Below are positions 1,069-40,974 of a stretch of 64,000 nt of DNA, piece by piece. The position numbers and the translations under genes were made by a program. Source of the DNA: a virus; the IMG/VR virus record IMGVR_UViG_3300037843_000280, positions 1 to 64,000 of that record. One strand, 5' to 3'. The notes below the pieces were generated by a model that saw nothing but the letters and a program-made list of their open reading frames with translations, was not told the origin of the DNA and did not search any database. Within the stretch, counting starts at the first letter, position 1; every line of letters starts with the position of its first letter.

Positions 1069-1144
1069 TGGTGCGCCCGGTCGGATTCGGACCGACGATC
1101 CCTGATTTAGAGGCAGGAGCTTTAGCCCACTAAGCTACGGGCGC
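1069..1144 (-). tRNA. tRNA, anticodon CUA (76 nt)
   Basis: Perfect acceptor gcgcccg/cgggcgc, D-stem gctt/aagc and T-arm gtcgg-tccgaat-ccgac. Anticodon stem cctgc/tcagg has a C-U mismatch at 31-39. Loop ctCTAaa has U33 and A37. Confidence 0.55.
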
Positions 1145-3811: not shown

Positions 3812-3979
3812 TCAAGGTCTATCTTCCGTCAGGGAACGACATAGCACCGCGTCGTAGTGCTCGGTGCAGAGCCACACTTGGTTGAACTTGATGGGGGCGG
3901 GTTCGTCGCAAAAGATCGGGTCGCCGTCTTCGCCCGGCTCCGTGTGGAAGTCCACGATATATTGGCAGCTATGCGCCAT
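3812..3979 (-). CDS. Small protein (55 aa), paralogue family member (DEPAPIKFNQVWLCTEHYD)
   Basis: ORF track trimmed to ATG 3979 (MAHSCQY). Motifs shared with 547..801 and 7706..7876. Confidence 0.45.
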   Translation of the reverse strand: MAHSCQYIVDFHTEPGEDGDPIFCDEPAPIKFNQVWLCTEHYDAVLCRSLTEDRP

Positions 3980-4193
3980 CTTGTTTCTTACACGTCGCAT
4001 CCATAATTTCGGGCGGCAAGTACATTGCACATTTGTGGGTTTCTAGGCAACGCCTGCACGTGTAACGTTTTAGGCCGCAATAGCCCGTTGGGTTGTGGTA
4101 GCAATCCTCAGTGATCCAGTCATGTTTTCGTAGTACAGTCCTGTTCCCGAAACGCCGAACGCCGTGGCGCTTTCCGATGTTGGTTTTAGCCAT
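3969..4193 (-). CDS. Hypothetical basic small protein (74 aa); ends in TAG
   Basis: ORF track. ATG overlaps the upstream TAA. Confidence 0.45.
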   Translation of the reverse strand: MAKTNIGKRHGVRRFGNRTVLRKHDWITEDCYHNPTGYCGLKRYTCRRCLETHKCAMYLPPEIMDATCKKQDGA

Positions 4194-4606: not shown

Positions 4607-4671
4607 ATGTTCTCCTCTGAAACTCTAATACTCGAATACTCGCCGTCCTGCCCGTCGCCGGTTTCCTTATT

Positions 4672-4699
4672 AGAAACAAAAAACCCCGCTTGCGCGGGG
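4672..4699 (-). terminator. Rho-independent terminator on the minus strand (ccccgc-gcaa-gcgggg followed by TTTTTGTTT)
   Basis: Hairpin plus T-tract seen in the sequence, ~70 nt upstream of the 4199..4606 start. Confidence 0.55.
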
Positions 4700-4897
4700 T
4701 CGTCTGTCGTGTTGAGGTTCGTTCCCACGGGGAACGTGCAGGCCGTTTTTCAGGCGGCTGCTGCAAAAGCCATTGCCTTTGGGGCAGTGACGTTTATGGT
4801 TTTGCTCATTTACGGAAGTTTGCTCTCCGGCTCGCGTGCAACTCTCATCGACCAAATGTCGAAACCAGTTCACCCACATGGTTTTGTGGGGAAATGA

Positions 4898-4929
4898 TGG
4901 TGTAGGTGGGGGGATTTGAACCCCCGTCC
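4898..4929 (-). other. Orphan tRNA/tmRNA-like 3' fragment: GGAC-GGGGGTTCAAATCCCCC-CACCTAC-A-CCA, with no 5' acceptor partner
   Basis: T-arm, 3' acceptor strand and CCA seen in the reverse complement. The 3' end resembles tmRNA termini, but a CDS occupies where the tmRNA body would lie. Confidence 0.4.
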
Positions 4930-5021
4930 ATCTGGCGACCTAAGCACCCAACTCCCCTTGCGGGGTTGTTACGAGCGTGTACATATATTACTTGAAAAGC
5001 CAGAAATGTCAAGTGATTGTT

Positions 5022-6701: not shown

Positions 6702-7265
6702 TCAACAAGTCTGCGGCGGAATCTTTGGCGGAGTGCCTGAGCCGGGCGTCCCGCCACCGGGATTATTGCCCGAGGGCTGAAACCCGAGAGCCTTGGGACC
6801 GTCCTTGATCACGTTAGGCCAGTTCTTGAAGAGCGGGAACCCGAGGTAGTAGTTTCCCGCGAACGCGATCCAGTACCCGCGCAGCGGGTCGAAGCCCGCG
6901 TCGAGCATGGTCACCCTGCCCGTCGCGATAGGGGGAACCGGGGGCGGGATCGGGAGGCCGGGATACCTGTTGTACAGGGCGGGCGTCGCCGCGTAGGGCG
7001 GGCGGTCAAGCTGCGCGGCGGGGATGGAAGCGCCGAACCACGGCCTGAGGAAAAGCCGGAAGCCGTCCTGCCGCGTGAGTTGGCCGATGTCGTACCAAAT
7101 CATATACAGCGAGTTGCCGAACAGCACGGTGGTCTGGGTTTTCGCCCAGATCGTGGTGACGGACAGCATGGCGCGGAGGCCCGAGTCCCACGGGATGCCC
7201 GAGACCGGGAGCACCTCTTGCGGCTGAGGCTGGCTAAGCTGCAACGCGAATATGTTTTCGCCCAT
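6702..7265 (-). CDS. Hypothetical protein with Pro-rich C-terminus (187 aa; start trimmed to MGENIF)
   Basis: ORF track 6702..7310 trimmed to an ATG that overlaps the ferredoxin stop as TAATG. Confidence 0.5.
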   Translation of the reverse strand: MGENIFALQLSQPQPQEVLPVSGIPWDSGLRAMLSVTTIWAKTQTTVLFGNSLYMIWYDIGQLTRQDGFRLFLRPWFGASIPAAQLDRPPYAATPALYNRYPGLPIPPPVPPIATGRVTMLDAGFDPLRGYWIAFAGNYYLGFPLFKNWPNVIKDGPKALGFQPSGNNPGGGTPGSGTPPKIPPQTC

Positions 7266-7438
7266 TATTGTACCAGGTGGATGGCCTGAGTCTCGCACAC
7301 CGGCTCGCAAGCCCCGCAGTCAATGCAGTCCTCATTGACGCAGAACGATCCATCATCCTTTTTTATGATAGCCGCGACCGGGCAAGCCTCGACGCAGTCG
7401 CCGTCCCTCTTGCATTTCTCTTGGTCGATTTCGTACAT
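7265..7438 (-). CDS. 7Fe-type ferredoxin-like protein (57 aa; CKRDGDCVEACPV ... CIDCGACEPVCE)
   Basis: Own translation MYEIDQEKCKRDGDCVEACPVAAIIKKDDGSFCVNEDCIDCGACEPVCETQAIHLVQ. It closely resembles Azotobacter-type FdI cluster motifs. Not in the ORF track because it is under 60 aa. Confidence 0.65.
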   Translation of the reverse strand: MYEIDQEKCKRDGDCVEACPVAAIIKKDDGSFCVNEDCIDCGACEPVCETQAIHLVQ

Positions 7439-7444
7439 CAGCTT

Positions 7445-7696
7445 TCACTCTTCGTCATAAGCCTTCATCGGACAGTCAAACTTGTGCGGAAACGGCTTCT
7501 CGCGGATCGAGGCTATTCTGCCGCACTTGCCGCACTTGAATGCAAGACCTTCTTCGCCGTCCACCATTTCGTAGGCGAAGCCCATCATTACATCCTGGTC
7601 CCCGCGCTTGATCTCGGCGATCTCTTCCGGGGTAAGCTCGTCGTTTTCGTCGTCGAAGTCGCACTCGTCTTCAAAATCCTCGAAATCGCTTGCCAT
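7445..7696 (-). CDS. Acidic Zn-ribbon small protein (83 aa)
   Basis: ORF track. GAGGG RBS. CGKCG...C...C motif. Confidence 0.55.
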   Translation of the reverse strand: MASDFEDFEDECDFDDENDELTPEEIAEIKRGDQDVMMGFAYEMVDGEEGLAFKCGKCGRIASIREKPFPHKFDCPMKAYDEE

Positions 7697-7705
7697 AGGA
7701 CACCC

Positions 7706-7876
7706 TCAAAAGGAACGTATATCAAAGCGGTCGTAGTGCGCCGCGCAGTACCACAGCCTGCCTTTGTCATCGGCGAGAGGGTGACGGCGGTAGTTTATGA
7801 CGTAGTCCACGGCTGGCTCGCCGCAAGCTTCCCATTCGCCGCCAGGCAACTCTATGCGCCAGACGCACGCTTCCAT
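7706..7876 (-). CDS. Small protein (56 aa), paralogue family member (GEPAVDYVINY...RLWYCAAHYDRF)
   Basis: Own translation. Not in the ORF track because it is under 60 aa. Confidence 0.45.
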   Translation of the reverse strand: MEACVWRIELPGGEWEACGEPAVDYVINYRRHPLADDKGRLWYCAAHYDRFDIRSF

Positions 7877-7879
7877 ATT

Positions 7880-8176
7880 TTACGCCCACCCCGTGCCGCC
7901 GCAAGCTTCGCAGCCCTTGCCGCCGCACTCCTTGCAGCGCAGCATCTTCTCAAGCTCCGGGTGCTTCTCCGCGATCTGGGCGTCCTTCTTGGCGCGGCTT
8001 TCGTAGAACGCCTTGAAGAAAGTCTGGCCAGCAGGCGTCTGCTTGAAGCCCGCCTTGAAGCTGAGCAGAAACGCCGTCCAAAACTTGCTGAGGTACCAGT
8101 CCCAAAGCATCTTGAGCGGAAACACCACGGCCGCGCCGATGCCAGCCCAGACCCAATGTGACCAGTGCCCGCTCAT
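7880..8176 (-). CDS. Small membrane protein with C-terminal Zn-ribbon (98 aa)
   Basis: ORF track. Hydrophobic stretches. CKECGGKGCEACGG. Confidence 0.5.
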   Translation of the reverse strand: MSGHWSHWVWAGIGAAVVFPLKMLWDWYLSKFWTAFLLSFKAGFKQTPAGQTFFKAFYESRAKKDAQIAEKHPELEKMLRCKECGGKGCEACGGTGWA

Positions 8177-8179
8177 ATC

Positions 8180-8785
8180 TCAGAAACTCTCCTTGAATGC
8201 TAGCAACGGAGTAATACTATTAAGAGAGACAGCTAGTTCAACCGCCTCCCAGATTTCGTGTGGAACTGCCACATATTTTCTCTGATTATGCGATTGAACA
8301 GATTTGGTTGCCCATCGGCAATTCTTCGGTTCATAATTTCCATTGACTTGCTTTCTGTCAATAGAAAATGTCTCACCAGGTTTCGGCCCCAAGTCAGCGA
8401 AAAAATTTTGAAAGGAGCCACCTTTCTCTGGATTCCAACGGTCGCAGACTGTGATGCCACGCCCGCCGTAACCCGAATAATGTGAATCGTTGGAATTAAA
8501 GCATCTCTGAAGAAGCCCTTCCCATGCGCGATATTCTGAACTTGGCTTTCCTCCAATTGCGTGCCCATGTTTAAGGTTGGCTTGACCCATTCGTTGACTG
8601 TTTTCACGGAGTAAACATTTGCAACTTAAAGTTCGACCGTCTTTAAGATGACAAGCACTTTTGGTGACTACGTTTCCGCAATCACAAAGACATAACCATA
8701 GTGCATTTCCGTGCTTATCCGAACCTTCTCGATTTTGAACGAGAAGGCGACCGAATCTTTGACCCGTTAAATCTGATGATCGCAT
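8180..8785 (-). CDS. HNH homing endonuclease (201 aa)
   Basis: LTGQRFGRL N-terminal motif, a Cys cluster, and NCRWAT...N, typical of the phage HNH_3 family. Confidence 0.6.
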   Translation of the reverse strand: MRSSDLTGQRFGRLLVQNREGSDKHGNALWLCLCDCGNVVTKSACHLKDGRTLSCKCLLRENSQRMGQANLKHGHAIGGKPSSEYRAWEGLLQRCFNSNDSHYSGYGGRGITVCDRWNPEKGGSFQNFFADLGPKPGETFSIDRKQVNGNYEPKNCRWATKSVQSHNQRKYVAVPHEIWEAVELAVSLNSITPLLAFKESF

Positions 8786-9504: not shown

Positions 9505-10947
9505 TTAAATGGCTCCCTTAGCCTCAATACCAGATTCCACAGGCTTTGCCTCGGTGAAGTCCTTGTCCGTGATGGCGCGGAAGCCGACGCGCTGCACGCG
9601 GCCGTCGCTGCGCAGGTGGTACACCTGCCAGTTGCCGTCGTCCAGCTTGACACCATAGCGGTGGATGAAGTAGTTCGGGATGATGATAACGTTCTTGCCC
9701 TCGAACGTCCCGTAGTAGCCCACGCGGTCGATCACCATCTTGCCCTCGAAGATCGGCTTCCCGGCGAGGCCGTCGCGGATCAGGCGCTTCTGGAGCTTGT
9801 CGAGCGGCACGAGGTCGTCGTATGTCTTCTCCGGCTTCTTGTAGACCATCTTGCCGTCTTCGCTCTTGTGCCAGACCTGGTCCGGTCGGATCGAGTCCTT
9901 GCGCACCTGCGTGTTCGGCTGCGGGGCTTCCGGCTCGGCGGCTTCCTTGACTTCATCCTTCGGAGCCTCCTTCATGTCCTTTGGCTGCTCAAGAATCTCC
10001 TGCGGGATCATCGTCCACTTGAAGCGATTGCGCGGCACGGGGAAGTTCAGCAGCCGCATCTTGCGGAACGTCGGGCGTCCGGGGAAAATCTGCGAGCGCC
10101 CGTCGGGGAACTTGGCGATCCAGTCCTGCGGACCGTGGTACAGCGCCATATCGCCGCCCGCGACCGCCTCGGGCTGGTACGTCATGCCTTCCACGGAAAT
10201 CGCACGCGGGATGCCGTTGAGCGGGGCGGCCTTCATCTCCTGCTCGTTCACGAAACTCACGGGCGCGGTGAAGTCCACGTTGCCCTTCTTGAGCGCCTTG
10301 AGAAGCTGGTTCTTGAACTGTTTTCCCGTGCCTATCGGGATCGTCCCCGTGGCGCGGCCAAGCTGGTCGTACACGATCACGAACATCGGCTTCGGTTGCT
10401 GCCTGAGCGAGCGGTTGCGGTACTGCCTGATCACGCGGGCGGTGTCGCTCGGCTTCGTCTTCTGCTTCGGCGAGTACGTAAGCTCGATGTGGCGGATTTT
10501 TGGCTCGCGCTTGATCTTCTTCGCAGACCCGGTCACCACGTGCTCCTGCGTCGCGTTGATGAAGTCCATCGGAATCTCGAACGTGCCCTCGTAAATTTGA
10601 ACGGTTGGGTCTTGTCCTATGGAGTCCTGCTCCTTCGCCGTGTCCGCCTCGGTACTCATGCCCTTGAACGCGGACAGCACAGTCTGGTACATCTTGACAA
10701 TCACAGGCTCCTCATACTGTTGCGCGAGCATGAACGCGGCGACCTCGTCGCACAGTACGTTGATAGCCTCGGCGATAAGCTCGGACATGGCGCGAGGCCC
10801 GCCCTCGGCGAGCGGCAGGTTCATCGAAAACACAGTAAAATTGGGAATTCCGAGGTCAAGATTTAGAGATACTCTTGGATGTGCGTCTCGGATTATGGCT
10901 ATTTCCAAGATACCGTGTGGCGGTGAGACATAAGAATGTTTTTCCAT
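9505..10947 (-). CDS. Virion structural protein (480 aa)
   Basis: ORF track. Sits in the late operon. Confidence 0.5.
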   Translation of the reverse strand: MEKHSYVSPPHGILEIAIIRDAHPRVSLNLDLGIPNFTVFSMNLPLAEGGPRAMSELIAEAINVLCDEVAAFMLAQQYEEPVIVKMYQTVLSAFKGMSTEADTAKEQDSIGQDPTVQIYEGTFEIPMDFINATQEHVVTGSAKKIKREPKIRHIELTYSPKQKTKPSDTARVIRQYRNRSLRQQPKPMFVIVYDQLGRATGTIPIGTGKQFKNQLLKALKKGNVDFTAPVSFVNEQEMKAAPLNGIPRAISVEGMTYQPEAVAGGDMALYHGPQDWIAKFPDGRSQIFPGRPTFRKMRLLNFPVPRNRFKWTMIPQEILEQPKDMKEAPKDEVKEAAEPEAPQPNTQVRKDSIRPDQVWHKSEDGKMVYKKPEKTYDDLVPLDKLQKRLIRDGLAGKPIFEGKMVIDRVGYYGTFEGKNVIIIPNYFIHRYGVKLDDGNWQVYHLRSDGRVQRVGFRAITDKDFTEAKPVESGIEAKGAI

Positions 10948-10949
10948 AC

Positions 10950-11588
10950 TTACACTTTCAAAAGCTGGCAGAACTCACACTTTGGACTGATGACTGCTCG
11001 ATCTCGATGATAACGGTTATGCCCGCTCAGTCGCCCATAATAACTTGCCATTAGCTTAACTTCTTCAGCGTGATGTTTTCCAAACATAGGATTTTTTGCG
11101 CCCAGCGTTCTAACTGATAATGCTCGGTGCCGATCTTTAGACGAATTAGCCCAAGATTGTTTGCTTCCCTCTCCGACTCTTTGACGATGTTGAGTTGAAA
11201 GCTTTCGACCCGTCATTTTTCTTCGCTGTTTTAGCTTTTGCTCCTCACTAGCACGTACTCCTAATCGACTTCTTGCTCGCGGGCATATGTTGTATCCGAC
11301 TTTTCTATCAAAGGATTTGATTTGATCAAGCCAAACTTGTTCATGAGGTATCAACAAAGCATAATCCGGCACCTTTTCTACTACTTCAAAAGAAAAAGCA
11401 GATTCCCCATATTTATTCCAAGCTCGTTGCAAATAGGGATTTTCATGAACACCTCGCTGAAGAGACGATGAATGATCCTGCCATCGTCTCTTAATGTCCA
11501 CGGCTGAGCCGATGTACACCTTGCCGTTGACGCCATTCTTGATGGCGTAAATGCCGCTGACTCCGTAGTTTAAGTCTAAGTGTCTCAT
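10950..11588 (-). CDS. GIY-YIG homing endonuclease with NUMOD3-like repeats (trimmed start MRHLD)
   Basis: GIYAIKNGVNGKVYIGSAVDIKRRWQDH motif. Free-standing between structural genes. Confidence 0.7.
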   Translation of the reverse strand: MRHLDLNYGVSGIYAIKNGVNGKVYIGSAVDIKRRWQDHSSSLQRGVHENPYLQRAWNKYGESAFSFEVVEKVPDYALLIPHEQVWLDQIKSFDRKVGYNICPRARSRLGVRASEEQKLKQRRKMTGRKLSTQHRQRVGEGSKQSWANSSKDRHRALSVRTLGAKNPMFGKHHAEEVKLMASYYGRLSGHNRYHRDRAVISPKCEFCQLLKV

Positions 11589-11592
11589 GCTA

Positions 11593-14061
11593 TTAGTATA
11601 ACCCAAAAATGAACAACTCGTCGCCGCCCGAGATTTCCCAGCACAAATCCAACCTCGGCGCGACGAGACCGTACAGGTGGTTCGGGTCCACGTTGCCGAC
11701 CTCGCCTGTTGGAGGCGGGGGCGTGCTCCCGGTGCCCATGTTCAAAATCTGCACCCAGCCGGTCGGGGCGCTGAAGGTGTTCTTGCCGATGTTGCGCCAC
11801 ATGACGGTGCCGTCCGTAGTGCCGCCGTTCGCCGACTGGCTCCAAGATGGCGCAGGCGACGCCTGCGACACCCCGGCGTTCAGCGCAAGCTGCTGGTTGC
11901 CGTTCGAGTCAACGACGATCTGGCCTTGGAACACGGTGCCGCCCGGTACCCAGCTTGACCCGATGCCAACACCGGACACTGCGATGGGCGGTTGCCCGAG
12001 GACATACGCGCCATTGCTGAGGTAGTAGGCGGACTGGAGGGTCGGCGAGAGCATGCCAGCGTTCGCTTGGACGCTCGGCGATTGGAGCGCCGCGACGGCG
12101 GCGTTCGCGATCTGGAACGTGGACACCTCGGCTGTGCCGGCCGCCGACACAACATTGATGTTCGGGGAGGTGAAATTCGCCGTGAATGCTATAGGCGTGG
12201 TCGAGAGGACGACCAATGTCTGACCGTTCAGGGATGGGATGCCGGTGTTGGCGAATGTCACCAGCATACCGGGGGCGAAGCTGTTCGGGGAAGTGACGGT
12301 GAGGACGTTCGCGCTGACTTGCAGCGCGAGCACGTTGGCGACAAGGTTGTACACGTCGTGGATCGGGGCGGTGACGTTGAGCGGCGGCGCACTGAACCCT
12401 TGAATAGTGACATATTCGCCCTCGTGGAGGAACTGCGTCGTCGGCACGTAGGTGTACGTGGCGTTCTTCCCGTCCGACATGCCGTTGATGATGTTGACGA
12501 ACACCGTGGGGAGCGCCTGCCACTGCGGGGGCGTAAGCTGCGCGGAGAGCCTCCTGCCGTATGCGGCGACGGTCGTCTTCGGGTTCGCGGGGTCGAGCGG
12601 GATCGGGGTGCCCTTGCTGTCCTTCGCCACGGTGCCGTCCGGGTTGAGCTTGAAGTTGGAGAGCGGCGCGATCCACAGCATCGGATTGAGAAACGGCGGC
12701 GGCTCGATCTGCTTCACGAATATGCGCAGTGTGTCGGTTATGCCCGAGGGCACGGTCTCGCAGGGCACGCAGCAGAGGTTGGTGTAAAGCTGCTGGTACA
12801 GGGCGCTCCACGTGGGATTGAGGGCTTGGAACTGCACGGTCGTGATGTCGGCCGGCAGACCGAACGTCGCCGTTCCTGTGGTTTCTGCCTGCGTCGGGTA
12901 GTTCGAGTGGGCGAAGCTTGCCGTGAATGTGCTGCCGGACACGCTGGTCACCGTGAGGGGCACGCCGTTCAGGAACGTCGATACCCCGAGGTTGACGAGC
13001 TTGACGACCGTGCCTGCCGATAGCGGGACGGCGAAGCTGAGGTTCACCGTGAGAACATTGAACGTTACGGAGGTGCTCACCACTGCCGGGGAGACGCCCG
13101 TCCACGTAATCTGATTGTCGGCTGTGGTCGTGCCGATTAGATTGCCGTGGATGTCCAACGTCGCGCCCACAGTGCTCCAGGTCGGCTGCAAGGCCCCACT
13201 GGTGTTCGGGAACGCGCCTATGCTGGTGGCGATCTGGAAATTCCCGTTGGAGTCGCGGAGCAAGCTGTCCAAAGGAAACATGGTGGTCTTTTGCCAGTAC
13301 TGCGCGGGGTTGATCTCCGTGTACCCCGTGAACTGGAAAAACGCCTGCTCGTCCGTTGGAAGCTGGACGAACTGCTGCTGCGTCACGTTCTGCGGCGCGA
13401 GGATGCACTGCAAGTCCTCGCCCTCGCCGAAGATAGTCGTGAACTCCAGCCCGACGTGCGCTGGCTTGGCGAGCGCGATGGCGTTGTAGAGGCTGTGAAC
13501 GATGGCCTGAAGCTGGAACAGCGAGGTGACCGTGGTCAGGGGGTTCGACCCAGTACCCCCAACCTGCACGGACACGCTGATTGCGTTGCGGTCGGACTGG
13601 TCGTAAACGCCGTTCCCGATCAGTTTGTAAAGCTCGACCACGTTGATGGAGATTCCCGTGTACGCAAAAATAACGTCGTGGATCGCCTTGACGGTCGTCC
13701 CCTCCAGGTACGCGGAGATAAGCTCGACAAGCATTTGCTTATACTGCGTGTCGAACTGCCCCAGCGAGGGCCAGTTCGAGGAGATGTACAGCGGTGCTGC
13801 CCAGCGGCGGCGTATGTCGGGGGGCGTCAGCAGGCTCGGGTCCTTGTTGACGAGGTCGTACGAGTAGTCGTAGTCGAGCTTCGCAAGCTCGATTGCAAGC
13901 GCCCTGACGAAGTTCCCCCAGATTGACTGATCATTCCTGGTTGAATAAAAATCAGCCACAGCTTGCAGTAAAGAATTCAGCCTAGCATCTTCGTATCTCA
14001 ACAAGTCTTCGCGACTGCGGAGATAGAGCAGGTCTGGGTTGTTGTTGAGCGGGTTAGCCAT
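11593..14061 (-). CDS. Large structural/fibre protein (822 aa) with FLNGQ-type repeats; ends with TAA TAG
   Basis: ORF track. Contains repeats STFLNGVPLTVTS...FTASF and PSLNGQTLVVLSTTPIAFTANF. Confidence 0.6.
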   Translation of the reverse strand: MANPLNNNPDLLYLRSREDLLRYEDARLNSLLQAVADFYSTRNDQSIWGNFVRALAIELAKLDYDYSYDLVNKDPSLLTPPDIRRRWAAPLYISSNWPSLGQFDTQYKQMLVELISAYLEGTTVKAIHDVIFAYTGISINVVELYKLIGNGVYDQSDRNAISVSVQVGGTGSNPLTTVTSLFQLQAIVHSLYNAIALAKPAHVGLEFTTIFGEGEDLQCILAPQNVTQQQFVQLPTDEQAFFQFTGYTEINPAQYWQKTTMFPLDSLLRDSNGNFQIATSIGAFPNTSGALQPTWSTVGATLDIHGNLIGTTTADNQITWTGVSPAVVSTSVTFNVLTVNLSFAVPLSAGTVVKLVNLGVSTFLNGVPLTVTSVSGSTFTASFAHSNYPTQAETTGTATFGLPADITTVQFQALNPTWSALYQQLYTNLCCVPCETVPSGITDTLRIFVKQIEPPPFLNPMLWIAPLSNFKLNPDGTVAKDSKGTPIPLDPANPKTTVAAYGRRLSAQLTPPQWQALPTVFVNIINGMSDGKNATYTYVPTTQFLHEGEYVTIQGFSAPPLNVTAPIHDVYNLVANVLALQVSANVLTVTSPNSFAPGMLVTFANTGIPSLNGQTLVVLSTTPIAFTANFTSPNINVVSAAGTAEVSTFQIANAAVAALQSPSVQANAGMLSPTLQSAYYLSNGAYVLGQPPIAVSGVGIGSSWVPGGTVFQGQIVVDSNGNQQLALNAGVSQASPAPSWSQSANGGTTDGTVMWRNIGKNTFSAPTGWVQILNMGTGSTPPPPTGEVGNVDPNHLYGLVAPRLDLCWEISGGDELFIFGLY

Positions 14062-14863
14062 TAGACACCGCCCTTTTTGCTAGTCGGCATTCAACCATAT
14101 GACGGATGTGTTCCGCAGAAACACCACGTTTCTTGGCGGCTTCGCTCATGCGCTTCTTAGTGTCTTCGGTGCGCTTCTTGCCTTTCAAAGCGGCAGAACG
14201 TTTTTGTAGTGTTTCTACAGACGGGTACCTGCCAGTAAGAGCCTCGCTCATTTTTCGACGCGATTCTTCTGTATGTCTCTTACCAAAGAACGGATTTTTG
14301 TCGCCAGAAATAGAGACGCTTACTGACTGGCTAATTTTTTCTTTTGTCTCTTCGGAAAGATGCCTACCGAGCATCCAACGTGGGCTTGCCAAGCTTCTCA
14401 TGCGTCGTTCTTCTTCGGATTGTTTGCGGCCGAGGCAGTTTGTATTCCCAATCATGGCTTTAGATCGTTTAGCGACGTGTTCAGGAGATTGCTTAGTGCC
14501 CAGCTTGGCGGCGCTCATTTTGGCTCTGTCTTCCGAAGAACGTTTTTTACCGCTCCAGTAATCAGCCCCCTCCCCCCCTGAAGTCAAGTTATAGCCGAAT
14601 TGACAATCATTGGCTCTGTGCTTGGCGATATAGTATTTTTCCTGAGTAGAAAGGTCTTCTCTGGAAGTTGCATAACCAGACAACATACAAACTTCAAAAG
14701 CGTCCTTACCGTACATTCGTATGGCGTTGTACAGATATGGGCAGTAGTTTTTGCCCGCAAGGGCGAACTTGAAGTGCTCGTTTTCTCGCAACCCGAAGCG
14801 GCGAAAGCTCTTGCCAACGTAAATCTTACCGTCTAGCTTGTTAATGATGACGTAGATATGCAT
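14054..14863 (-). CDS. GIY-YIG homing endonuclease with three NUMOD3-like repeats (269 aa)
   Basis: IYVIINKLDGKIYVGKS motif. Repeats HSEETKEKISQS, HTEESRRKMSEA and RTEDTKKRMSEA. Confidence 0.7.
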   Translation of the reverse strand: MHIYVIINKLDGKIYVGKSFRRFGLRENEHFKFALAGKNYCPYLYNAIRMYGKDAFEVCMLSGYATSREDLSTQEKYYIAKHRANDCQFGYNLTSGGEGADYWSGKKRSSEDRAKMSAAKLGTKQSPEHVAKRSKAMIGNTNCLGRKQSEEERRMRSLASPRWMLGRHLSEETKEKISQSVSVSISGDKNPFFGKRHTEESRRKMSEALTGRYPSVETLQKRSAALKGKKRTEDTKKRMSEAAKKRGVSAEHIRHMVECRLAKRAVSNG

Positions 14864-21879: not shown

Positions 21880-24747
21880 TTAGGAGACGACGCCTTTCAG
21901 CCTGAAGGCTACCGTGTTTCCAGCGACATCGACGCTGCCAGACCACACCGGGCTGTAGCTCCCGGTTGCGCTCACCACCTGATAAGCCAAGGCGTCCCCT
22001 ATGCCGTCTTCCGCCGACGCTTCGACACCGATCAAGATAAAGCCCGCTGGCGTGGATGGGACGGAAGTCTCTATTCCCATGTTGCTGAAGATCACATCGT
22101 TTGCGTTGCTTGTGGAAATCGTGCCTGAGGAAATCGAAGATTGCCCCCCAGAGAAGGACGTGGAAGCCGAGGCATCCACGACAGCCGGGGATAGCAACCC
22201 GGCCATTTCCGCCGCCACGGCGGCGATGACCGAATTGAAAGATATGCCGGGGAAAGTCATCGTGATCGTGCAACTTCCTCCCGTCGTCACATTGGCGTAA
22301 TAGAAATCGGTGTTCCAGGTAATGCTGTTGGTAGCCCGAGTCACCAAGGTATAGGTGTTCCCCAAGTTATCGTTGATTGTCTGCCCTGACTGGCTGTAAT
22401 CGAATTCGGTGACGCCGAGAATGATGGTGTCCCCGACAGCGATGGGTCTTGGGAAAGAGACAGTGAGGGTGCTCGACGTCCCGTTTGCAACAGCGCCCTT
22501 CGCGACCTGGACAGGGGTCGCGCTGTACGTTGTGACAGTTTGGAACGTGTATGTCGTCGCGCTGAAGTAGGTCGTGCTCAGACCGCTGACTGTGTCCGTT
22601 GCGCTGAAGCCGAGAAGATCGGTGTTGCCTCCGGGCTGATCAGGCGGGACGAACGTTTTAGTGAACGTGCTAAAGTACACGGTCTGTCCGCTGACCGTGC
22701 CCGCAGTCGGCCCGCTTAGCCGCGTGCCCGCCCCGATGAGCACGGCGGGCGACCCGGAAATCGTGTTCTTGTAGTAGAAGTTCATCGTCATCGGGTTGTT
22801 GTCGAATGTGTACGCGGTGCCGGTAAGCGTCACGTTGCTGCCCGTGGTGAGCGATGTCGTGTTCGGGTTGGTCGAGAACGAGTACGCCACCGGGGGCGAG
22901 AATCCCAGCCCGGTTGTCGAAACAGTCTTCGACTGATTGGAGAAGTACGTCACGGGACCGTGGATCGTGAACGCCGTGCCATTCAGGTAGTCCAAGAAGC
23001 CGGTCAGGCTCATCGTCAAGTTGAAGCTGCCGTTGGTTTCGGACACCGGCACGGTGATGGGCACGGTGTACCCCGTGAGAAAGCCAGAAGTATTGAGTTG
23101 CTGCGCGATGCTGCCCGTCGCGATGGTAGTGCCGCCGTTTGAGGTAAACGAAGCGGTCACGTTGTTGTTTGTCTTGCCGCCCGCGCCGATCTGCTGCGGG
23201 GACATCGGCTCGGTCAGCGTGACCGTGAACACGTGTTGGTTGCCGTCAGCGGGCACGCTCGTCGGCGAGACAGTGTATCCGCTGGGGTTGACCATGTAGT
23301 CCACCTCGACGCCAAACGAGATGCCTCCCGGTCCGCCCGGCGACGCCGGGGCGAACGTGTCGTAGTTTTTGTTGACGGAGTCGAACCATGCAATGTCTTC
23401 CGCCGTGACGGTAAGCTGCGTGGACGCCGCGATGCCTGCCGGGAACGGGGTGCCGCTGTACTTAAGGCTGAACTGCCCGTCACTTGCGTCATTGTACACG
23501 ACGTTGAGGAGGCTCTGCGTGTTTCCGCTGAGCTTGAACACCGTAGTCGCCGCAGTCGGCTTGTCCACTGGCTGACCGTTGTAGGTCTGGAAGTTGAAGA
23601 CGTGGGTCGGGTCGTTATAGATGAACAGCTTTCCGGTCGTACCCTCCAGCAGCGGGATGTACTGCTTATTCGGGTACACGATGCCGCTCACGTTGACGTT
23701 CAGAGTCATCTGATTGCCTTGAATCTGCGTGTTTGGCTGCGCGAGGCTCAACTGCAAGTTGCCCGCAGGCGTCGTCGCCGGGGGAGCGGGCTGTAAAGCG
23801 ACCGGCTTGATGACGCCGCCAGACTCGCCGTTGCCGGAAGCGGGAGGGATGGCGCTCGCGCCTGCGGCGTAAGTCCACTGGAAAAACGTCTGGCTGTCAG
23901 CGTTGTTCACGAACCACGCCAGGAACGGATAGATGCCGGGGGCCGGGAAGTTGACGTACACGTAGTCCGTTGGCTGGACTTCCACAGCCGCAGTGTTGCG
24001 CGTGCCCAGCAAAGGCCACGGGCCGACTCCGGCAAGCGAGGTGCCTGTCGTCGCAGCGGAAGCAGTGCTGGGGGAAACCGGGGAACCCGTGGTGAAAGCG
24101 CCGGACACGTAGCTTGCGCCACCGCCGATATAGAGCGCCCAACTATCGTCAACGAGGAAGTAGAACGTTTCGATACCGCTCTGGGCGACTACGATCTGGC
24201 CTTGGAGAAACGTGACGAAAGAGCCGTCGCCCTGTGCGCCTTGCCCCCAGCCTAGCACCGACCCGAGAGAGGTCAGCGCGGTGCCGTCCGACTTGACGTC
24301 GTCCAGGAGCGGCGGGACGTGTTTGTATTGCCCCGAGTTTCCGTCATCTGTGGTAAGCCCGGTGATCGGAACTCCGTTTCCCACAGCGCCGTTTGTGTAG
24401 ACTTGGTTGATGACGACGGTGTTCTTGCCCGTCAGAATGGGGGGAAACGCTGCTCCGACGCCGTGCCATGTGGGGTTCTCGCCGGGGTTCGCGTACCCGG
24501 CGATGGTCACGTTGCTGGCGAGGGACACAGTGCCGTTCGTTGGCTGCCATGCCACGAAGGCGCTGTTCGAGGTGTAGAGGGTGCTGGCAATGGTCGCCGT
24601 CGCGACGAGCGTGTCCTGACCGCTGTTCACGCCTGTGAAGGTGAAGCTGGTCGAGCCACTGCCCGTGGTCGGATCGACATTGACCGAAACCGTCTTGGTC
24701 TGCGGGTTGGCCCCGGTTGTCGTAATCTGTATGGTTTCAGTAGGCAC
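21880..24747 (-). CDS. Large structural/fibre protein (955 aa), GTG start
   Basis: ORF track. T/S/G-rich. Confidence 0.55.
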   Translation of the reverse strand: MPTETIQITTTGANPQTKTVSVNVDPTTGSGSTSFTFTGVNSGQDTLVATATIASTLYTSNSAFVAWQPTNGTVSLASNVTIAGYANPGENPTWHGVGAAFPPILTGKNTVVINQVYTNGAVGNGVPITGLTTDDGNSGQYKHVPPLLDDVKSDGTALTSLGSVLGWGQGAQGDGSFVTFLQGQIVVAQSGIETFYFLVDDSWALYIGGGASYVSGAFTTGSPVSPSTASAATTGTSLAGVGPWPLLGTRNTAAVEVQPTDYVYVNFPAPGIYPFLAWFVNNADSQTFFQWTYAAGASAIPPASGNGESGGVIKPVALQPAPPATTPAGNLQLSLAQPNTQIQGNQMTLNVNVSGIVYPNKQYIPLLEGTTGKLFIYNDPTHVFNFQTYNGQPVDKPTAATTVFKLSGNTQSLLNVVYNDASDGQFSLKYSGTPFPAGIAASTQLTVTAEDIAWFDSVNKNYDTFAPASPGGPGGISFGVEVDYMVNPSGYTVSPTSVPADGNQHVFTVTLTEPMSPQQIGAGGKTNNNVTASFTSNGGTTIATGSIAQQLNTSGFLTGYTVPITVPVSETNGSFNLTMSLTGFLDYLNGTAFTIHGPVTYFSNQSKTVSTTGLGFSPPVAYSFSTNPNTTSLTTGSNVTLTGTAYTFDNNPMTMNFYYKNTISGSPAVLIGAGTRLSGPTAGTVSGQTVYFSTFTKTFVPPDQPGGNTDLLGFSATDTVSGLSTTYFSATTYTFQTVTTYSATPVQVAKGAVANGTSSTLTVSFPRPIAVGDTIILGVTEFDYSQSGQTINDNLGNTYTLVTRATNSITWNTDFYYANVTTGGSCTITMTFPGISFNSVIAAVAAEMAGLLSPAVVDASASTSFSGGQSSISSGTISTSNANDVIFSNMGIETSVPSTPAGFILIGVEASAEDGIGDALAYQVVSATGSYSPVWSGSVDVAGNTVAFRLKGVVS

Positions 24748-25283
24748 TATTCGTTACCCCATCTTTTATTTGCCATGCGACGAGCTTGCTCTCTACCTTC
24801 GGGGGAAGACATCCGAAACTTTGTCTTTTGTTGCACTTTGACTATATGTTCCGCGCCCAACTTGATCCCACGTCTTGGATGCGTTCTGTGCTTTTTCCCG
24901 GCTGTATGCGTATTTCCCATCATGCGCTGCCGTGCAGCCTCTTTCCACTCATCTGTATGTGTGTAACCAACGGCATTCTTGTTACCCGGTGATGCGCCGT
25001 CGCCTCCCAGCGTCATGTTGTAGCCGTACTCTAGTTTATGGGACTGATACAGAATGATGAAGAAAGTTTCCATCGCGTTGAGTTCATCGAAAGATTTCGC
25101 TTCGTGGAGAGTATTAGTCTCGAACGCTTCAGCGCCATGCTTACGAATGGCTCTGTGGAAATAAAGTCTGCTACCCTTGTGTACCGCCCTAAGGTGCTCC
25201 TTCCATCTTGCGGTCAAAGTATTCTCTGTCTTACCGATGTATACCTTACCGTTGATTTTGTTCGTCGCTTTGTAAATAACCAT
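24747..25283 (-). CDS. GIY-YIG homing endonuclease (trimmed start MVIYKAT; TAG stop)
   Basis: IYKATNKINGKVYIGKTENTLTARWKEH motif. Starts 9 nt after the stop of the upstream giant gene. Confidence 0.65.
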   Translation of the reverse strand: MVIYKATNKINGKVYIGKTENTLTARWKEHLRAVHKGSRLYFHRAIRKHGAEAFETNTLHEAKSFDELNAMETFFIILYQSHKLEYGYNMTLGGDGASPGNKNAVGYTHTDEWKEAARQRMMGNTHTAGKKHRTHPRRGIKLGAEHIVKVQQKTKFRMSSPEGREQARRMANKRWGNE

Positions 25284-25291
25284 AATGTCTC

Positions 25292-28200
25292 TTAGCTGAG
25301 CAATTGCGTCGGGAAAGACCCGGAGGATGGCGTCACGATCAAGTTGCCGTCCGTGTAGACCTTCCACTTAAAAACTGCCGTAGCCTGAACACCGGAATCC
25401 GTTACCGACACCACCAAGTCGTTGTCGCCCGGCGACCCGGCGTTGAACGGGCCGAGCAGCGGGATAAGCGCCGTCCTTGTCCCCGTGTTCAACTGGATGG
25501 TGCCCACCGAAAGCGCGGAGTTGCTCAACGAAACCTGAATGGTGCTCGTGGAGGTGCTGACCACGTTCGTGGCGACCACGTAGAAGGACAGGTTGGGAGC
25601 GGGGTTGATCGTCGCCACGTTCCCGGCGTCCACGTAACCAAGGTACGTGGTGCTTGTCCCGTCCTCGAAGTCGATTCCAGTCTGAAGCGCAAGACCGACT
25701 CCCACGGTCACCGTGAACGTCTGGTCAGAATAGGCATTAAGCGTGTCAACCACGCGGAAGAGCACGGACTTGTTGTATCCCGACTGGGTCGTTATGCCGC
25801 TCACCAGACCGCTAGACGAGACCCCGATGCCCACCGGCAGCGAATTCGTGTTGTTCGGCGAAAGCTGGAACGTGTACGGCGTGTTCGCGCTACCCGTCGC
25901 CGTAAGCTGGTAGCTTTCCGATATCCCCGAGACAATCGGGATTGTGAATGGCGAGTTGGTGAAATGCAGACCGGACGGCTGCGACGTGATCGAAAGAGTC
26001 TGGGTCGTGAATGTTGCGGCGACACTGTCCGTCACCGTGAAAGTGAACGTGGCCGGGTTAGGGCTGAAATTGGCCGGAACGGTGCCCGTAATGAGACCGC
26101 TGCTCGCCAGCGACAGGTTCGGAGCCGTTCCGTTCATGGGCGATGGGGTGCTCGTGAATGTGTACGGTGCGACCCCTCCGGTCGCCACAAGCTGCACGCC
26201 CAGAGCGGACGGTCCGTACTGCCCGCCAGCGATGAGTGCGTTGGGCAGCGTATTGCCGATGAACGAGTTGATGACTGTCCCGGACGCGCCGTCCTTCCAC
26301 CCGACAATGGTCAAAGCAGTGTTGGGGACGACAGTCGAGATGCGGTGATACACGTAGGCGTGCTGACCAGTTGTGGATGTGCACGAGAACCAGCAGTCGA
26401 AATAACCCGCTTCGATAGGCGTGCCAGAAATAGTGATGTTGTTGCTGCTGGCCCCGACTGTAAGACCACGAGGCAGCACTCCGTACAACAGAGAGGCGGA
26501 TTGTAGTGAAACTCCCACTGGCGCGGTGAACGCAGTAGCGCCATTGTACGGGGAGCCGACAGGCTGTACGTCAACCACGTTGTCGATAAGCTGGAACGCG
26601 CTTTGGTACAGCGCCCAGTTGATCGTCGCCGTGCCGTGAACATTGCCCCCCGCGTCTATGTATTGGACCACGGTGGGCGTGCTCTGCGTGCCGACCAGCG
26701 TGCCGTAGATCAGGCCCGTGTTAGCGTCGAGCGACAGACCCGGAGGCAGGGTGGACGGAACAACCACCCGCGCTGTCAAGGGCGTGAAGAACGGACTTCC
26801 AGTGCCGCTGAGGGGGCCAAGCTGCGGGGCGTTGTAGTAGGACTTGCGCGGGTTGGTGCCGACCCCGTCGCCCGTTATATATGGATGCGGATACGCAACG
26901 ATGGTTCCGATGTCCCCGGTTGCGATAGCGACTACGGACGATTCCCCAATGGCGTTCGCATTAGCGAGCGTCAATGTGCCCACTGTGGAAGCCGTGCAGA
27001 GAAAATAGCCATTGTTTTGTGTTGGGTTGGTAACAAACCCGGTGACTGAGAACGAATACCCGGCGAAAGCGTTGTTCGCGCCGCCGATGATGTTTCCGGT
27101 GTAGACGGCTGTTGTACCCACCGAAGCCGCCACATGAGTCAGGTTGTAAGTCGCAGGGTCGTTGTGCGCCAGCGACGTGTACTCACGGGAAATGCTTTCG
27201 CTGCCCGACACTGCGGGGATGTAAGTTGTGACGGCGTTCGCGAACGGCTGCGGCGTAATCACGATGGCAGTTCCAGGTTCGGAGGGATTGCTGTAGTCGC
27301 CGATGGAGAACAGCGTCGTGAACGAAGTCGAGGGTCCGGACGGCGGGTTGTCCACGGTAGAGACTTGAAAGAGTCTTTGAGTGTTGATCGTTGCTTCTGC
27401 CGTACCTTGGATGTATACCTGCTCCGCGTTCGTGGGGGGAAATGGGGCAGGGGCAGCAGTAAACGTGTTGAGCGCGTTGACTGAAACGATACCTCCCGTT
27501 GCCGCTGTTGCCGTGATCTGCGAATAGGTCGCCACGCCGCTCGGGTTGTTCAAAGTCAGGGTCGTAGTCGTGGACGCCACGCACATGAACGTGCCGTTGT
27601 TCGCGGGGTTTAGGAATCCGGTGACGGTGAACTGCGCGTTTTGGAAAGCGTTGCTCACCGACTCAGGCTGGGGGGTCGCGTAAGTATAGACGGTGTTGCC
27701 GCCAGAGTTCTGCGCGGCATATGCGAACGCAAGCTGCTGGTTGACCTGCATCAGGACGCGGGTCTGCGCGTTGCCGTAGTACGCATTCGCGATGGCGGCG
27801 TTGTTGCCCGGAGGACCATACCACTCCGAGTCTGGCAACTGCACGACGACCGGGCTTGATAGCGTGGCGGACGTCGGGTCTATCGCCGTTGCGATACCGT
27901 TCCCAAGGAAGACACCCTTGAGAGCCTTGCCCAAAACCTCGGTCGCGGTCGCGGACGGCGGGGAGCCGGTCAGGGTCTCGGCAGCGCCGTATGGGTTAGC
28001 CAGCGTCAGCGTAGTGCCGGTGGACGCCGTGCAAAGGAACGTGCCGTTATTCTGCGGGTTGAGCACGAAGCTTGAGATGACGAAGAACTGCCCGGCATAG
28101 AAGTTCGCGGTCGCATTGAACCCGACCCCAGTGTAGACCGTCGTGCCGGACGATGCGTTGGCGGCTGCGGATAAAGCGAACGCCGATGCTGCCGTCAACA

Positions 28201-35224: not shown

Positions 35225-36241
35225 ATGCCTTACGATTTCATAAACCAGAACATCGTGGCTTCGTGCCTGATCCAGCCGCACGACGATGATTCTTTTTACA
35301 ACCCTGTCAGGAATTTGCACACGGGGTTCGCTTTCGACGGCAACCATTATACCCTCGGCGTGCAGGACGGTCCAGCGAGCGTGTGGGTCGCGAACGGCGG
35401 GAACCTGCGGGCGACGTGGTGGTCGGAGGCGCAGTCCGGCAACCCTTACCGGGGCGACCAGCAGAACTTCCCCACCTACGGCATCGTCTTGCTTTCCCCC
35501 GTGTCGCTGGCGATCCTAGACCAGTCCACCCCGGTCTCCGTGGCGACGGCGCTACCCCTGTGGATGCAGTTCCTCCTCGGGGACACCAACGCGCTCGCGA
35601 ACGATTTCAACGGGGCGATCCAAGGATTCCTGCCGTCCGGTGTGTGCTACGCCGACGGGATCATCTCCGTGACCTACTCGCCTGACTCGGGTAACCAAGC
35701 CTCCTATACGTACCCCGCGTGGGACGCTGCTACTGCTTACACCCCCGGAACGCCCTTGGGCACGGGTTGGGTCAACGGGAGCATCGTCACGTACAATGGC
35801 GTCCGCTACCAAGCCATCCCATCAGTTCCCTCCCTAGCCAGCCAAGTTGTCGAAGTGAATACAGGCAGCCCGCCCGCCGACGTCGTGACCTTGACGGTGA
35901 GCGCGGGGTCGTGGGCGGTGGGGCAACAGGCTTCGCTCGCGGGCTTGAACGCAGCCACGTGGCTCAACGGTCAGACCGTGGCCCTGATCGCTGGCACAAC
36001 GACCACGTCGCTGGTCTTCGTCGATCCGACCTCGCACGGGGCTTTCGGTCCGGCGGCAGAGACGGCGGGCACCGCGACCGTGGTGAACGTCGGGTTTCCC
36101 CCGGCGTCCAACCTGAGCCTTTGGGTCGTAGAGATAACGAAGCCGTACCCCGCGCCGTACCCGACCATCGGCGCAAACTCCAATATGGTCATCTCGATAG
36201 ACTTCGCACAGGACACTGCCTACTTAGACGTGGCAGTGTGA
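35225..36241 (+). CDS. Fibre-like structural protein (338 aa) with a C-terminal FLNGQ-type repeat, on the opposite strand
   Basis: ORF track trimmed to ATG MPYDF with a GGGGAAGAG RBS. Carries the ATWLNGQTVALIAGTTTTSLVF repeat. Confidence 0.55.
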   Translation: MPYDFINQNIVASCLIQPHDDDSFYNPVRNLHTGFAFDGNHYTLGVQDGPASVWVANGGNLRATWWSEAQSGNPYRGDQQNFPTYGIVLLSPVSLAILDQSTPVSVATALPLWMQFLLGDTNALANDFNGAIQGFLPSGVCYADGIISVTYSPDSGNQASYTYPAWDAATAYTPGTPLGTGWVNGSIVTYNGVRYQAIPSVPSLASQVVEVNTGSPPADVVTLTVSAGSWAVGQQASLAGLNAATWLNGQTVALIAGTTTTSLVFVDPTSHGAFGPAAETAGTATVVNVGFPPASNLSLWVVEITKPYPAPYPTIGANSNMVISIDFAQDTAYLDVAV

Positions 36242-36288
36242 AGCGAGGTGCTGTAGCCTGTTTCCCAAAAACTGCGTATTACACCCTC

Positions 36289-36933
36289 ATGGCATATAAG
36301 TCATTCACATCTACGCAGTTCAAGTCACTGGAACCCGTCATACCTTGGGAGTTCCTCGACGAACTTATTGGCTTCTACTGCGAAAACCCGGCCCCCAAAA
36401 TTCTTGATGCCACAGTGAATAATGGCCGCATTTGGGGCCGTGGCAAGTCTCGCTACAAGTACACGGGCATGGACATCGACCCTTCTGTGAACCCGGACGT
36501 GGTCGGCGACAACACCAATATGCCGTTCGAGAACGAATCTTGGGACATCGTAGTCTATGACCCACCGCACTGCGGCGACCAAGGCAAGTCTGACACCGAA
36601 TTTGCCAAGAAGTACGGTACCGGCATGACGTCCAAAAACCCTGATGGCAAGTGGGGCAGTCTGGCTCACACCTATCCTCCGTTTCTTGCCGAGGCCAAGC
36701 GCGTCCTGCGCCCCAATGGACTCCTGCTTGTGAAACTAATCGACTACACGCACAGTGCCAAATTTCAGTTCGCTACGGCAGAATTCTGGTATGCTGCTAA
36801 AGAATTTGGCTTTGAGCTTCAAGGCTTAAATATCCTGCCACGCAATGGTGTCATCACTGATACCAAGTGGAAGAAAGCATATCATCCTCGGCAGAACCAC
36901 TGCACATGGATGACATTCAAGAAAGGGAAATAG
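36289..36933 (+). CDS. DNA N6-adenine/N4-cytosine methyltransferase (214 aa; TAG stop)
   Basis: DPPH motif (VVYDPPHCGD). The real start MAYKS lies inside ORF-track 35719..36933, whose first 190 aa are frame junk. Confidence 0.55.
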   Translation: MAYKSFTSTQFKSLEPVIPWEFLDELIGFYCENPAPKILDATVNNGRIWGRGKSRYKYTGMDIDPSVNPDVVGDNTNMPFENESWDIVVYDPPHCGDQGKSDTEFAKKYGTGMTSKNPDGKWGSLAHTYPPFLAEAKRVLRPNGLLLVKLIDYTHSAKFQFATAEFWYAAKEFGFELQGLNILPRNGVITDTKWKKAYHPRQNHCTWMTFKKGK

Positions 36934-37089
36934 TGGAAACCAAACTCCCCAAAAAGATGCAGGACAAATTGCGAAAGTTCATGCGGGTAGGCTACCATCC
37001 CGAAGGCATGAAAGTACATGATGGACCTGAGTGAGCACCATGACCATGGTTCTCTATCTTCCCGCCATTTACCACTGCTCTACGCTTAC

Positions 37090-37944: not shown

Positions 37945-37969
37945 TCAACAATTACATTATACCGCAATT

Positions 37970-38758: not shown

Positions 38759-38782
38759 GAAGACAGTTTACTAGAATTTTGA

Positions 38783-39448: not shown

Positions 39449-39580
39449 ACCCTAGTATACAGCGGGGGCCTCGCGTTTGTCCACCCGCTTGAAAATATTT
39501 CCCACGACAGATGTACTTTTTACATAACGACAAATAAATAAGTAACTTACGGCAGGAATCATCGACATAGTGATGTGGCT

Positions 39581-40108: not shown

Positions 40109-40143
40109 TTCAAACCCTCGCTAAAGGGCTTGAAATTAGGGTT

Positions 40144-40395
40144 TTATTCCCTGCGCCAGGTCTTCGCGTCGCCTGATGAACTGTAGGCTCCGCAGCACTG
40201 TGGGACGTTGGGGCTGTAACAGTTGGCGCAGACGGTGACGTTCTTGGTGGATGTGCCGCACATATGAGCGCCGTGATGCTTACACCAGATGCGGCGGACG
40301 AAAGCGGTACGCCTCCAGAAGAAGAAGTAGGCGGAAAACCAGACGTCTCGCCAGCGGAGTTCGCGTTCGGGCTTTATGTATTCAAGCTCGCTCAT
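40144..40395 (-). CDS. Small Cys-rich protein (83 aa)
   Basis: ORF track with ATGA overlap to its neighbour. Confidence 0.45.
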   Translation of the reverse strand: MSELEYIKPERELRWRDVWFSAYFFFWRRTAFVRRIWCKHHGAHMCGTSTKNVTVCANCYSPNVPQCCGAYSSSGDAKTWRRE

Positions 40396-40664: not shown

Positions 40665-40665
40665 G

Positions 40666-40902: not shown

Positions 40903-40974
40903 TGGGTTTTCTCCGAAAGGTTAATACTGAGATGGGTAGCAGTTTGGCGAATCCAAACGATGAACTCAATTCGC

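Follow-up and report, generated by a model that had tools for sequence, protein, structure and literature searches.

A short seven-cysteine ferredoxin gene of bacterial type inserted among the structural genes of an uncultivated, probably huge phage

We analysed a 64,000-nucleotide (nt) stretch of viral DNA, positions 1 to 64,000 of the IMG/VR record IMGVR_UViG_3300037843_000280 (hereafter the window), in which a small ferredoxin gene lies among phage structural genes (Table 1). A preliminary description of this DNA had reported a phage-encoded, 57-amino-acid (aa) ferredoxin of the 7Fe type. The open reading frame (ORF) lies where that description placed it and encodes MYEIDQEKCKRDGDCVEACPVAAIIKKDDGSFCVNEDCIDCGACEPVCETQAIHLVQ, which contains both of the peptides quoted there; the strand, which was left out, is minus. 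The description looked to the Pfam Fer4 profile, with the lack of a match counting against a ferredoxin, and the search returned 47.2 bits, far over the gathering cut-off of 21.1 (E 1.5e-12). Five related models also passed their cut-offs (Fer4_6, 40.4 against 25; Fer4_7, 32.6 against 27; Fer4_10, 31.1 against 25.5; Fer4_9, 29.7 against 27; and Fer4_2). Among 5.8 billion proteins searched, 17 matched at E values of 1e-13 to 1e-31, 13 of them 56–57 aa long, and the identical gene occurs on six independent metagenome contigs from different samples, 99.9–100% identical to the window. A chance ORF was ruled out by the Fer4 score, the 17 homologues, the six contigs and a ratio of nonsynonymous to synonymous change (dN/dS) of 0.03–0.09. 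Profile and homologue searches confirm that the gene encodes a ferredoxin of the Fer4 superfamily, and its product is predicted to be a small, soluble, bacterial-type dicluster ferredoxin.

Both ends of the gene are tightly joined to conserved phage genes. The TAATG coupling and the 6-nt gap reported earlier were both seen on direct reading of the sequence, the ferredoxin stop TAA (7265–7267) sharing a base with the ATG of the next gene (7263–7265). In all five relatives compared (L181–L185), 83–92-aa homologues of the upstream gene adjoin the homologue of the 187-aa downstream gene directly, with no ferredoxin between them, and tblastn found no ferredoxin in L181 or L182. Since these flanks abut without it, the gene is, by this comparison, a lineage-specific insertion of ~180 nt into the conserved structural block of one soil-type lineage within a huge-phage clade. 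In the closest relative, L182, the 92-aa gene runs into the 187-aa gene through an identical TAATG (junction ...GAGGAATAATGGGCGAAAAC), so the tight coupling was inherited from the insertion site and is no evidence for a ferredoxin operon. The proposed ‘operon of small early genes’ finds no support: baseplate, portal-like and virion-protein genes share the conserved block in which the ferredoxin lies, all running in one direction. By consensus matching, which carries no evidence of function, the nearest upstream promoter-like sites on the coding strand lie at ~8.3 and ~8.8 kb, and no terminator-like site falls between the ferredoxin and its neighbours.

The 92-aa protein of L182 ends in ...SDEIDEE* and the ferredoxin starts with MYEIDQE; the corresponding DNA is GACGAGATCGACGAGGAA in L182 (9960–10001) and TACGAAATCGACCAAGAG in the window (7415–7460), which may be microhomology at the insertion point or chance.

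That the gene is phage-encoded is borne out by Baseplate_J, baseplate-wedge phrog_6, the GH108 and SLT lysis domains and homing endonucleases in the window, and by synteny with phage contigs of 263–458 kb. The window encodes a 1700-aa Baseplate_J/baseplate-wedge protein, lysis domains of the SLT, GH108 and peptidoglycan (PG)-binding types, a 220-aa protein 48% identical to virion protein gp222 of the acidobacterial jumbo phage Tunturi_5, and a 480-aa ORF whose N-terminal 218 aa align at 34% identity with the C-terminal portion of the portal protein from the same phage; Tunturi_5 gave the only DNA match among isolated phages. The Baseplate_J, portal-like and virion genes lie upstream of the ferredoxin on the same strand, and phage genes flank it on both sides, away from the contig edge. 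The structural block is common, at 57–83% protein identity, to contigs of 458 kb (L181), 263 kb (L184), 448 kb (L185), 332 kb (P0070) and 454 kb (P0094). Because the block is shared with contigs of this size, the window probably derives from a huge phage several times its 64 kb, with a genome of likely >250 kb. The flanks of the ferredoxin are conserved in huge-phage contigs. Bacterial contamination was considered and rejected.

The cluster-binding residues are strongly conserved. Exactly seven Cys (C9, C15, C19, C38, C41, C44 and C48) are invariant in an alignment of the 17 homologues, as are G42 and A43, and P20 is nearly so. Position 12, the canonical site of the second Cys, is Asp in the phage protein and D, A, V, N, Y or I across the family, and all 14 copies from genomes of the Acidobacteriota clade (57–59 aa) lack the second Cys and have the same seven-Cys pattern. 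The residue after C48 is E, D or N in the 57-aa family, never Pro, and may also be T in the 57–59-aa genome set. At the column of Cys33 the homologues carry N, K, S or E. The 55-aa ferredoxin of Clostridium acidurici aligns without gaps over residues 6–52 at 40% identity, in a register that agrees with the coordinates of the PDB hits; C9, D12, C15, C19, C38, C41, C44 and C48 fall on its eight ligand Cys, with D12 on Cys11. The gapless alignment points to a scaffold of clostridial size from which ligand 2 has been lost.

Because position 12 tolerates Ala, Val and Ile, it cannot be a required ligand, which argues for a three-Cys [3Fe-4S] site and a four-Cys [4Fe-4S] site. A 7Fe complement, [3Fe-4S][4Fe-4S], is most likely the best reading, and the earlier 7Fe assignment keeps its basis in seven invariant Cys and a variable eighth ligand position. 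By analogy with solved dicluster ferredoxins, the [3Fe-4S] cluster would be held by C9, C15 and C48 and the [4Fe-4S] cluster by C38, C41 and C44 together with C19. Asp12 would then stand where the first site lacks its fourth ligand, so the 3Fe cluster could accept a fourth metal, as in ferredoxin III (FdIII) of Desulfovibrio africanus.

The same Asp could instead make the protein 8Fe in vivo by supplying the fourth ligand to a second [4Fe-4S] cluster, which would pass to the 3Fe form only upon oxidation; the models are Pyrococcus furiosus ferredoxin and D. africanus FdIII in its 8Fe form. The phage copy, the six 57-aa homologues nearest to it and all ten acidobacterial copies of 54–59 aa (L017–L026) have Asp at the second-Cys position, and Asp ligation of a [4Fe-4S] cluster is documented for both model proteins (PMC5715301, PMC2946596); the [4Fe-4S] cluster that the corresponding Asp of P. 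furiosus ferredoxin ligates is labile (PMC2946596). Ten other close homologues (P0008–P0017, 57–85 aa) have A, V, N, Y or I at position 12, with no carboxylate, and keep all else. The relatives come from metagenome-assembled genomes (MAGs) of Terriglobia and related Acidobacteriota; Terriglobia are mostly aerobic, and aerobic conditions favour 3Fe forms. In the crystal structure of a Sulfolobus 7Fe ferredoxin, the C45-x2-D48-x2-C51 site holds a [3Fe-4S] cluster through three Cys with the equivalent Asp unbound (PMC2946596). We consider the 8Fe arrangement unlikely and retain the 7Fe assignment in what follows.

The predicted fold agrees with the family assignment. An AlphaFold2 (AF2) model has a mean predicted local distance difference test (pLDDT) score of 80, and its top Foldseek matches in the PDB are all ferredoxins (Azotobacter FdI, pyruvate:ferredoxin oxidoreductase (PFOR) delta and clostridial ferredoxin; template-modelling (TM) scores ~0.57–0.63, probability 0.97–1.00). 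By sequence, polyferredoxins score higher overall, and the best single-module PDB matches are the 7Fe proteins 1bc6, 1h98 and 2v2k and the clostridial 1fdn. A BFVD fold search returned no match (best E >1), which is weak evidence with a 57-aa apo model as the query.

The origin of the gene is bacterial. Its closest cellular copies, 61–79% identical, stand as solitary genes in MAGs of Acidobacteriota/Terriglobia or on contigs of bacterial appearance, in ordinary chromosomal settings whose neighbouring genes include biotin and pyrimidine synthesis genes, a Crp regulator, cytochromes and helicases. When one genome per species was scanned, the top 14 matches came almost all from Acidobacteriota/Terriglobia MAGs and were all of the short 7-Cys type. 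Comparison of the sequences shows capture from an Acidobacteriota/Terriglobia-type bacterium, and the donor probably belonged to the host lineage. Against the bacterial copies, the proportion of synonymous differences (pS) is 0.68–0.84, which is saturated, and dN/dS is in the range given above; in G+C content at third codon positions (GC3) the phage gene, at 0.72, resembles its homologues. Saturation at synonymous sites implies that the capture was not very recent, or that the donor is unsampled. The protein has been under constraint along the combined phage and bacterial path. Within the phage the gene shows no variation, the six sampled contigs being essentially clonal.

We give a probability of about 0.6 to the explanation as a whole, that a host-derived dicluster, likely 7Fe, ferredoxin was inserted into a phage structural block and carries electrons during infection. 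Co-transcription and translational coupling with the neighbouring genes are probable, and synthesis of the ferredoxin would then coincide, or nearly so, with that of the late gene products. Its clusters would be loaded by the ISC/SUF machinery of the host. It would take electrons from ferredoxin-reducing enzymes of the host and hand them to ferredoxin-dependent enzymes encoded by the host or by the rest of the phage genome, and low-potential electron flow would be sustained during infection. By analogy with the ferredoxins of cyanophages and Nitrospirota viruses, the phage may thus supply an extra or more robust low-potential carrier.

Several observations weigh against this explanation. The preliminary description had expected redox-dependent functions nearby, and none appeared: a Pfam and PHROG search of essentially all credible ORFs in the 64-kb window met no oxidoreductase, radical-SAM, flavodoxin or other flavoprotein, or reductase family, and the families found were structural, lysis, methyltransferase-like and homing-endonuclease only. 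The bacterial loci are equally unrevealing: the 111 neighbouring ORFs at 16 loci gave 119 families, each present at three loci at most, with Usp and c-type cytochromes the commonest. With no recurrent bacterial neighbour, the electron-transfer role would be generic; the pattern fits a solitary, general-purpose carrier. The phage copy has also replaced a near-invariant Glu25 with Ile and gained Cys33, and its Asp12 is the residue on which the 8Fe alternative builds. As the phage copies are clonal, purifying selection in the phage lineage is inseparable from that in the bacterial lineage. Expression timing, finally, is deduced from gene order alone. The conserved 187-aa gene was considered as a possible enzyme and set aside: it has no Pfam or PHROG match, and as a conserved phage-clade protein it is informative for synteny only.

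Some of these points would suit a neutral passenger, a host fragment gained by illegitimate recombination in an insertion-prone stretch and of no benefit to the phage. The ferredoxin is absent from all five related phages examined, an HNH endonuclease and a 56-aa gene are further gains of the same stretch when it is compared with L182, no partner gene lies nearby, and the sampled phage population is clonal. A decaying passenger, however, would not be expected to show the low dN/dS recorded here at saturated synonymous sites, with the seven ligand Cys, P20 and G42-A43 all intact. The insertion is also precise, bringing its own ATG and keeping the pre-existing TAATG junction, and its GC3 resembles that of the homologues. 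Carriage without benefit is, on balance, rather improbable.

A more specialized role has still less to recommend it. The protein might be the dedicated reductant of a phage-encoded ferredoxin-dependent enzyme, which would have to lie outside the 64 kb and could be, for example, a radical-SAM nucleotide- or DNA-modification enzyme; or it might be an iron or oxygen sensor built on the Asp-flanked 3Fe/4Fe site, whose conversion would couple late gene expression or assembly to the redox state of the host. Under either version the change of Glu25 to Ile, at a near-invariant surface position, and the added Cys33 would be a retargeting to a new partner. We hold out only a slim chance for this pair of roles.

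The position of the gene could also suggest an Fe-S protein with a part in virion assembly, structure or sensing in place of electron transfer, since the ferredoxin sits inside the co-directional structural block and is coupled to the conserved 187-aa phage protein, and some phage tail proteins, such as lambda gpL, carry Fe-S clusters. Relatives with the same structural block nevertheless assemble without the ferredoxin, the protein has no extra domain for docking into a virion, and it retains 61–79% full-length identity to free-standing bacterial ferredoxins outside phage contexts. A structural role thus seems highly improbable, and electron transfer by a captured host-type carrier remains our preferred explanation.

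Table 1 Features of the window at and around the ferredoxin gene
Feature	Position	Strand	Details and basis
Ferredoxin gene	7265..7438	-	ATG start, 57 codons and TAA stop; open-reading-frame list
TAATG stop/start overlap	7263..7267	-	Joins the ferredoxin and the downstream 187-aa gene; read directly from the sequence
6-nt spacer	7439..7444	-	Separates the ferredoxin ATG at 7438 from the 83-aa gene, whose stop codon ends at 7445
Cluster motif I	7379..7414	-	C9-K-R-D12-G-D-C15-V-E-A-C19-P20
Cluster motif II	7292..7327	-	C38-I-D-C41-G-A-C44-E-P-V-C48-E49
Cys33 codon	7340..7342	-	Extra Cys in the phage copy alone; not a conserved ligand
83-aa gene, upstream flank	7445..7696	-	Acidic N-terminus, CxxC...C; conserved phage gene
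187-aa gene, downstream flank	6702..7265	-	Conserved phage gene; 81 homologues, several on contigs of 263-458 kb
Homing endonucleases (one HNH, three GIY-YIG-type)	8180-8785, 10950-11606, 14054-14863, 24747-25367	-	Among structural genes
Three different tandem tRNA genes, anticodon CUA	894-967, 970-1045, 1069-1144	-	ARAGORN and Rfam
Permuted tmRNA	4659-4990 (Rfam core 4750-4952)	-	Rfam RF04321, 91.5 bits against a cut-off of 47

The surroundings of the ferredoxin vary among relatives. In the part of its block that was compared, L182 has neither the HNH gene nor the first two of the GIY-YIG genes, and a GIY-YIG gene occurs elsewhere in the block of other relatives. The portal-like 480-aa ORF (9505–10947, minus) is separated by a GIY-YIG gene from an 822-aa ORF upstream (11593–14061, minus); relatives also have separate ORFs of ~816 aa and 365–493 aa, and the pair may be either a split portal or two genes. 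Three paralogous small proteins of 56, 84 and 72 aa (7706–7876, 547–801 and 3812–4030, all minus) share the motif C-x-(E/D)-P-A-x-(D-Y/-)-(I/V)...(W/F)-x-C-x-x-H-(Y/L)-D and are possibly metal-binding; one of them, encoded two genes upstream of the ferredoxin, has no counterpart in L182. A 98-aa protein (7880–8176, minus), kept in relatives, begins with a hydrophobic segment and bears a double CxxCxGxG zinc-finger motif of the DnaJ type towards its C terminus (CKECGGKGCEACGGTG).

Further features concern translation and composition. The three CUA tRNAs are amber suppressors with an encoded CCA end. TAG ends 3 of 37 confident genes, and no large gene of the window is visibly interrupted by it. 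TAG recoding was rejected as a confounder of the ORF calls, given the uninterrupted large genes and the TAA stop of the ferredoxin; the tRNAs possibly serve TAG recoding in another part of the genome, or have some different role. The three confident genes that end in TAG all lie at 36000–41500, where GC content is 0.52–0.54 (~0.58–0.62 elsewhere) and where weak methyltransferase-like matches fall below Pfam cut-offs; this may be a separately acquired segment. For the tmRNA, ARAGORN gives the tag VTAPKAMAFAAAA, and consensus matching finds a promoter-like site at 5012–4985 and a terminator-like hairpin at 4701–4682. Extension by ~2 kb past the right end of the window revealed no annotated function.

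Among characterized ferredoxins, the preliminary description had likened the protein to Azotobacter FdI. The likeness holds for the seven ligand Cys, the same cross-wise cluster assignment and the probable cluster complement, and Azotobacter FdI, 1bc6, 1h98 and 2v2k are among the best PDB sequence or fold matches of the phage protein; it fails for spacing, length, the CE ending and FdxA scores. The first motif of FdI, as of the other solved classical 7Fe ferredoxins, is C-x7-C-x3-CP, in FdI with a displaced extra Cys, whereas that of the phage protein is C9-x5-C15-x3-C19-P, and HMMER alignments to 1bc6, 1h98 and 2v2k begin only at residue 10–11, which puts the first Cys out of register with the 7Fe structures. 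Proteins of the FdI/FdxA type have 77–107 aa with a C-terminal helical extension; the phage protein has 57 aa and ends nine residues past its last Cys. The second motif ends in CP in FdI and in CE here. The NCBIfam models FdxA_Protbact (27.9 against a cut-off of 135), FdxA_Actino (36.2 against 125) and FdxA_fam (35.1 against 65) all scored below their cut-offs. On these comparisons the phage protein falls outside the FdI/FdxA family, with a cluster complement that is probably the same as that of FdI.

A closer likeness is to D. africanus FdIII and to the cluster-I site of the Sulfolobus/Acidianus ferredoxins, with C-x2-D-x2-C-x3-CP followed by a complete C-x2-C-x2-C-x3-C. Like FdIII, by motif and by its description in the literature, the phage ferredoxin is a protein of ~60 aa without an extension and is expected to hold [3Fe-4S] and [4Fe-4S] clusters; by analogy, it would work like an FdIII-type 7Fe ferredoxin. 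In FdIII, too, Glu and not Pro follows the last Cys. The family of the phage protein, by contrast, does not conserve the Asp, the N-terminal zinc domain of the Sulfolobus ferredoxins is missing, and the source is a phage with Acidobacteriota relatives, as against a sulfate reducer (FdIII) or an archaeon (Sulfolobus). D. africanus FdIII is a 7Fe protein whose reactive 3Fe cluster accepts a fourth metal (PMC13111528), the relevant residue being Asp14 (PMC5715301).

With the clostridial 2[4Fe-4S] ferredoxins (C. acidurici, 1fdn), the phage protein shares its length class, colinearity and eight ligand positions in register; it differs in having Asp for the Cys of ligand 2 and Glu for the Pro that follows ligand 8. 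A second Acidobacteriota 7-Cys ferredoxin, of 83–85 aa (MAYVITDTCTKDELCVEACPVDCIHP...), occurs at loci such as L028, L033 and L035; with the C-x5-C spacing of the short type and a C-terminal extension like that of FdxA, it is intermediate between the two 7Fe types.

The gene is useful beyond its own function. It provides a host-linkage clue (Acidobacteriota/Terriglobia) for an uncultivated huge phage and a dated case in which a moron entered a conserved block of structural genes, and it highlights an uncharacterised Acidobacteriota family of 57–59-aa, 7-Cys ferredoxins outside all curated NCBIfam models. Current understanding is not overturned, and the physiological meaning is generic without a partner.

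Ferredoxins are common on viral contigs, and there are precedents for host-like copies. Nitrospirota viruses from Lake Baikal encode a 4Fe-4S ferredoxin 86% identical to that of the host, a high identity that was read as capture (PMC7678222), and the [2Fe-2S] ferredoxin of cyanophage P-SSM2 feeds electrons to host sulfite reductase (bioRxiv 10.1101/2020.02.07.937771). The common feature is a host-like ferredoxin on a phage genome. The P-SSM2 protein differs from the 57-aa protein in cluster type and scaffold, and the Nitrospirota virus VP_1723 has an accompanying oxidoreductase, whereas none is visible in the window. Scanning IMG/VR gave 99 relatives, from which 80 were kept (L096–L175); 79 of these are of the long C-x7-C, FdxA-type 7Fe form and none is of the short 57-aa C-x5-C type. 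The FdxA-type copies measure 66–120 aa (some ORF calls are longer) and form several recurrent sequence groups, which suggests that phages or prophages widely carry the long type; some copies may lie on host or prophage flanks. The ferredoxin families of PHROGs match the phage protein weakly, and tblastn against isolated phages gave one weak match, in a gut phage (32% identity), with no ferredoxin gene in Tunturi_5. If the protein is active, phage control of low-potential electron flow would reach soil or peat Acidobacteria, beyond cyanobacteria and Nitrospirota. Set beside these systems, the gene is a real but fairly ordinary host-derived phage metabolic gene, of a subfamily that is distinct and uncharacterised.

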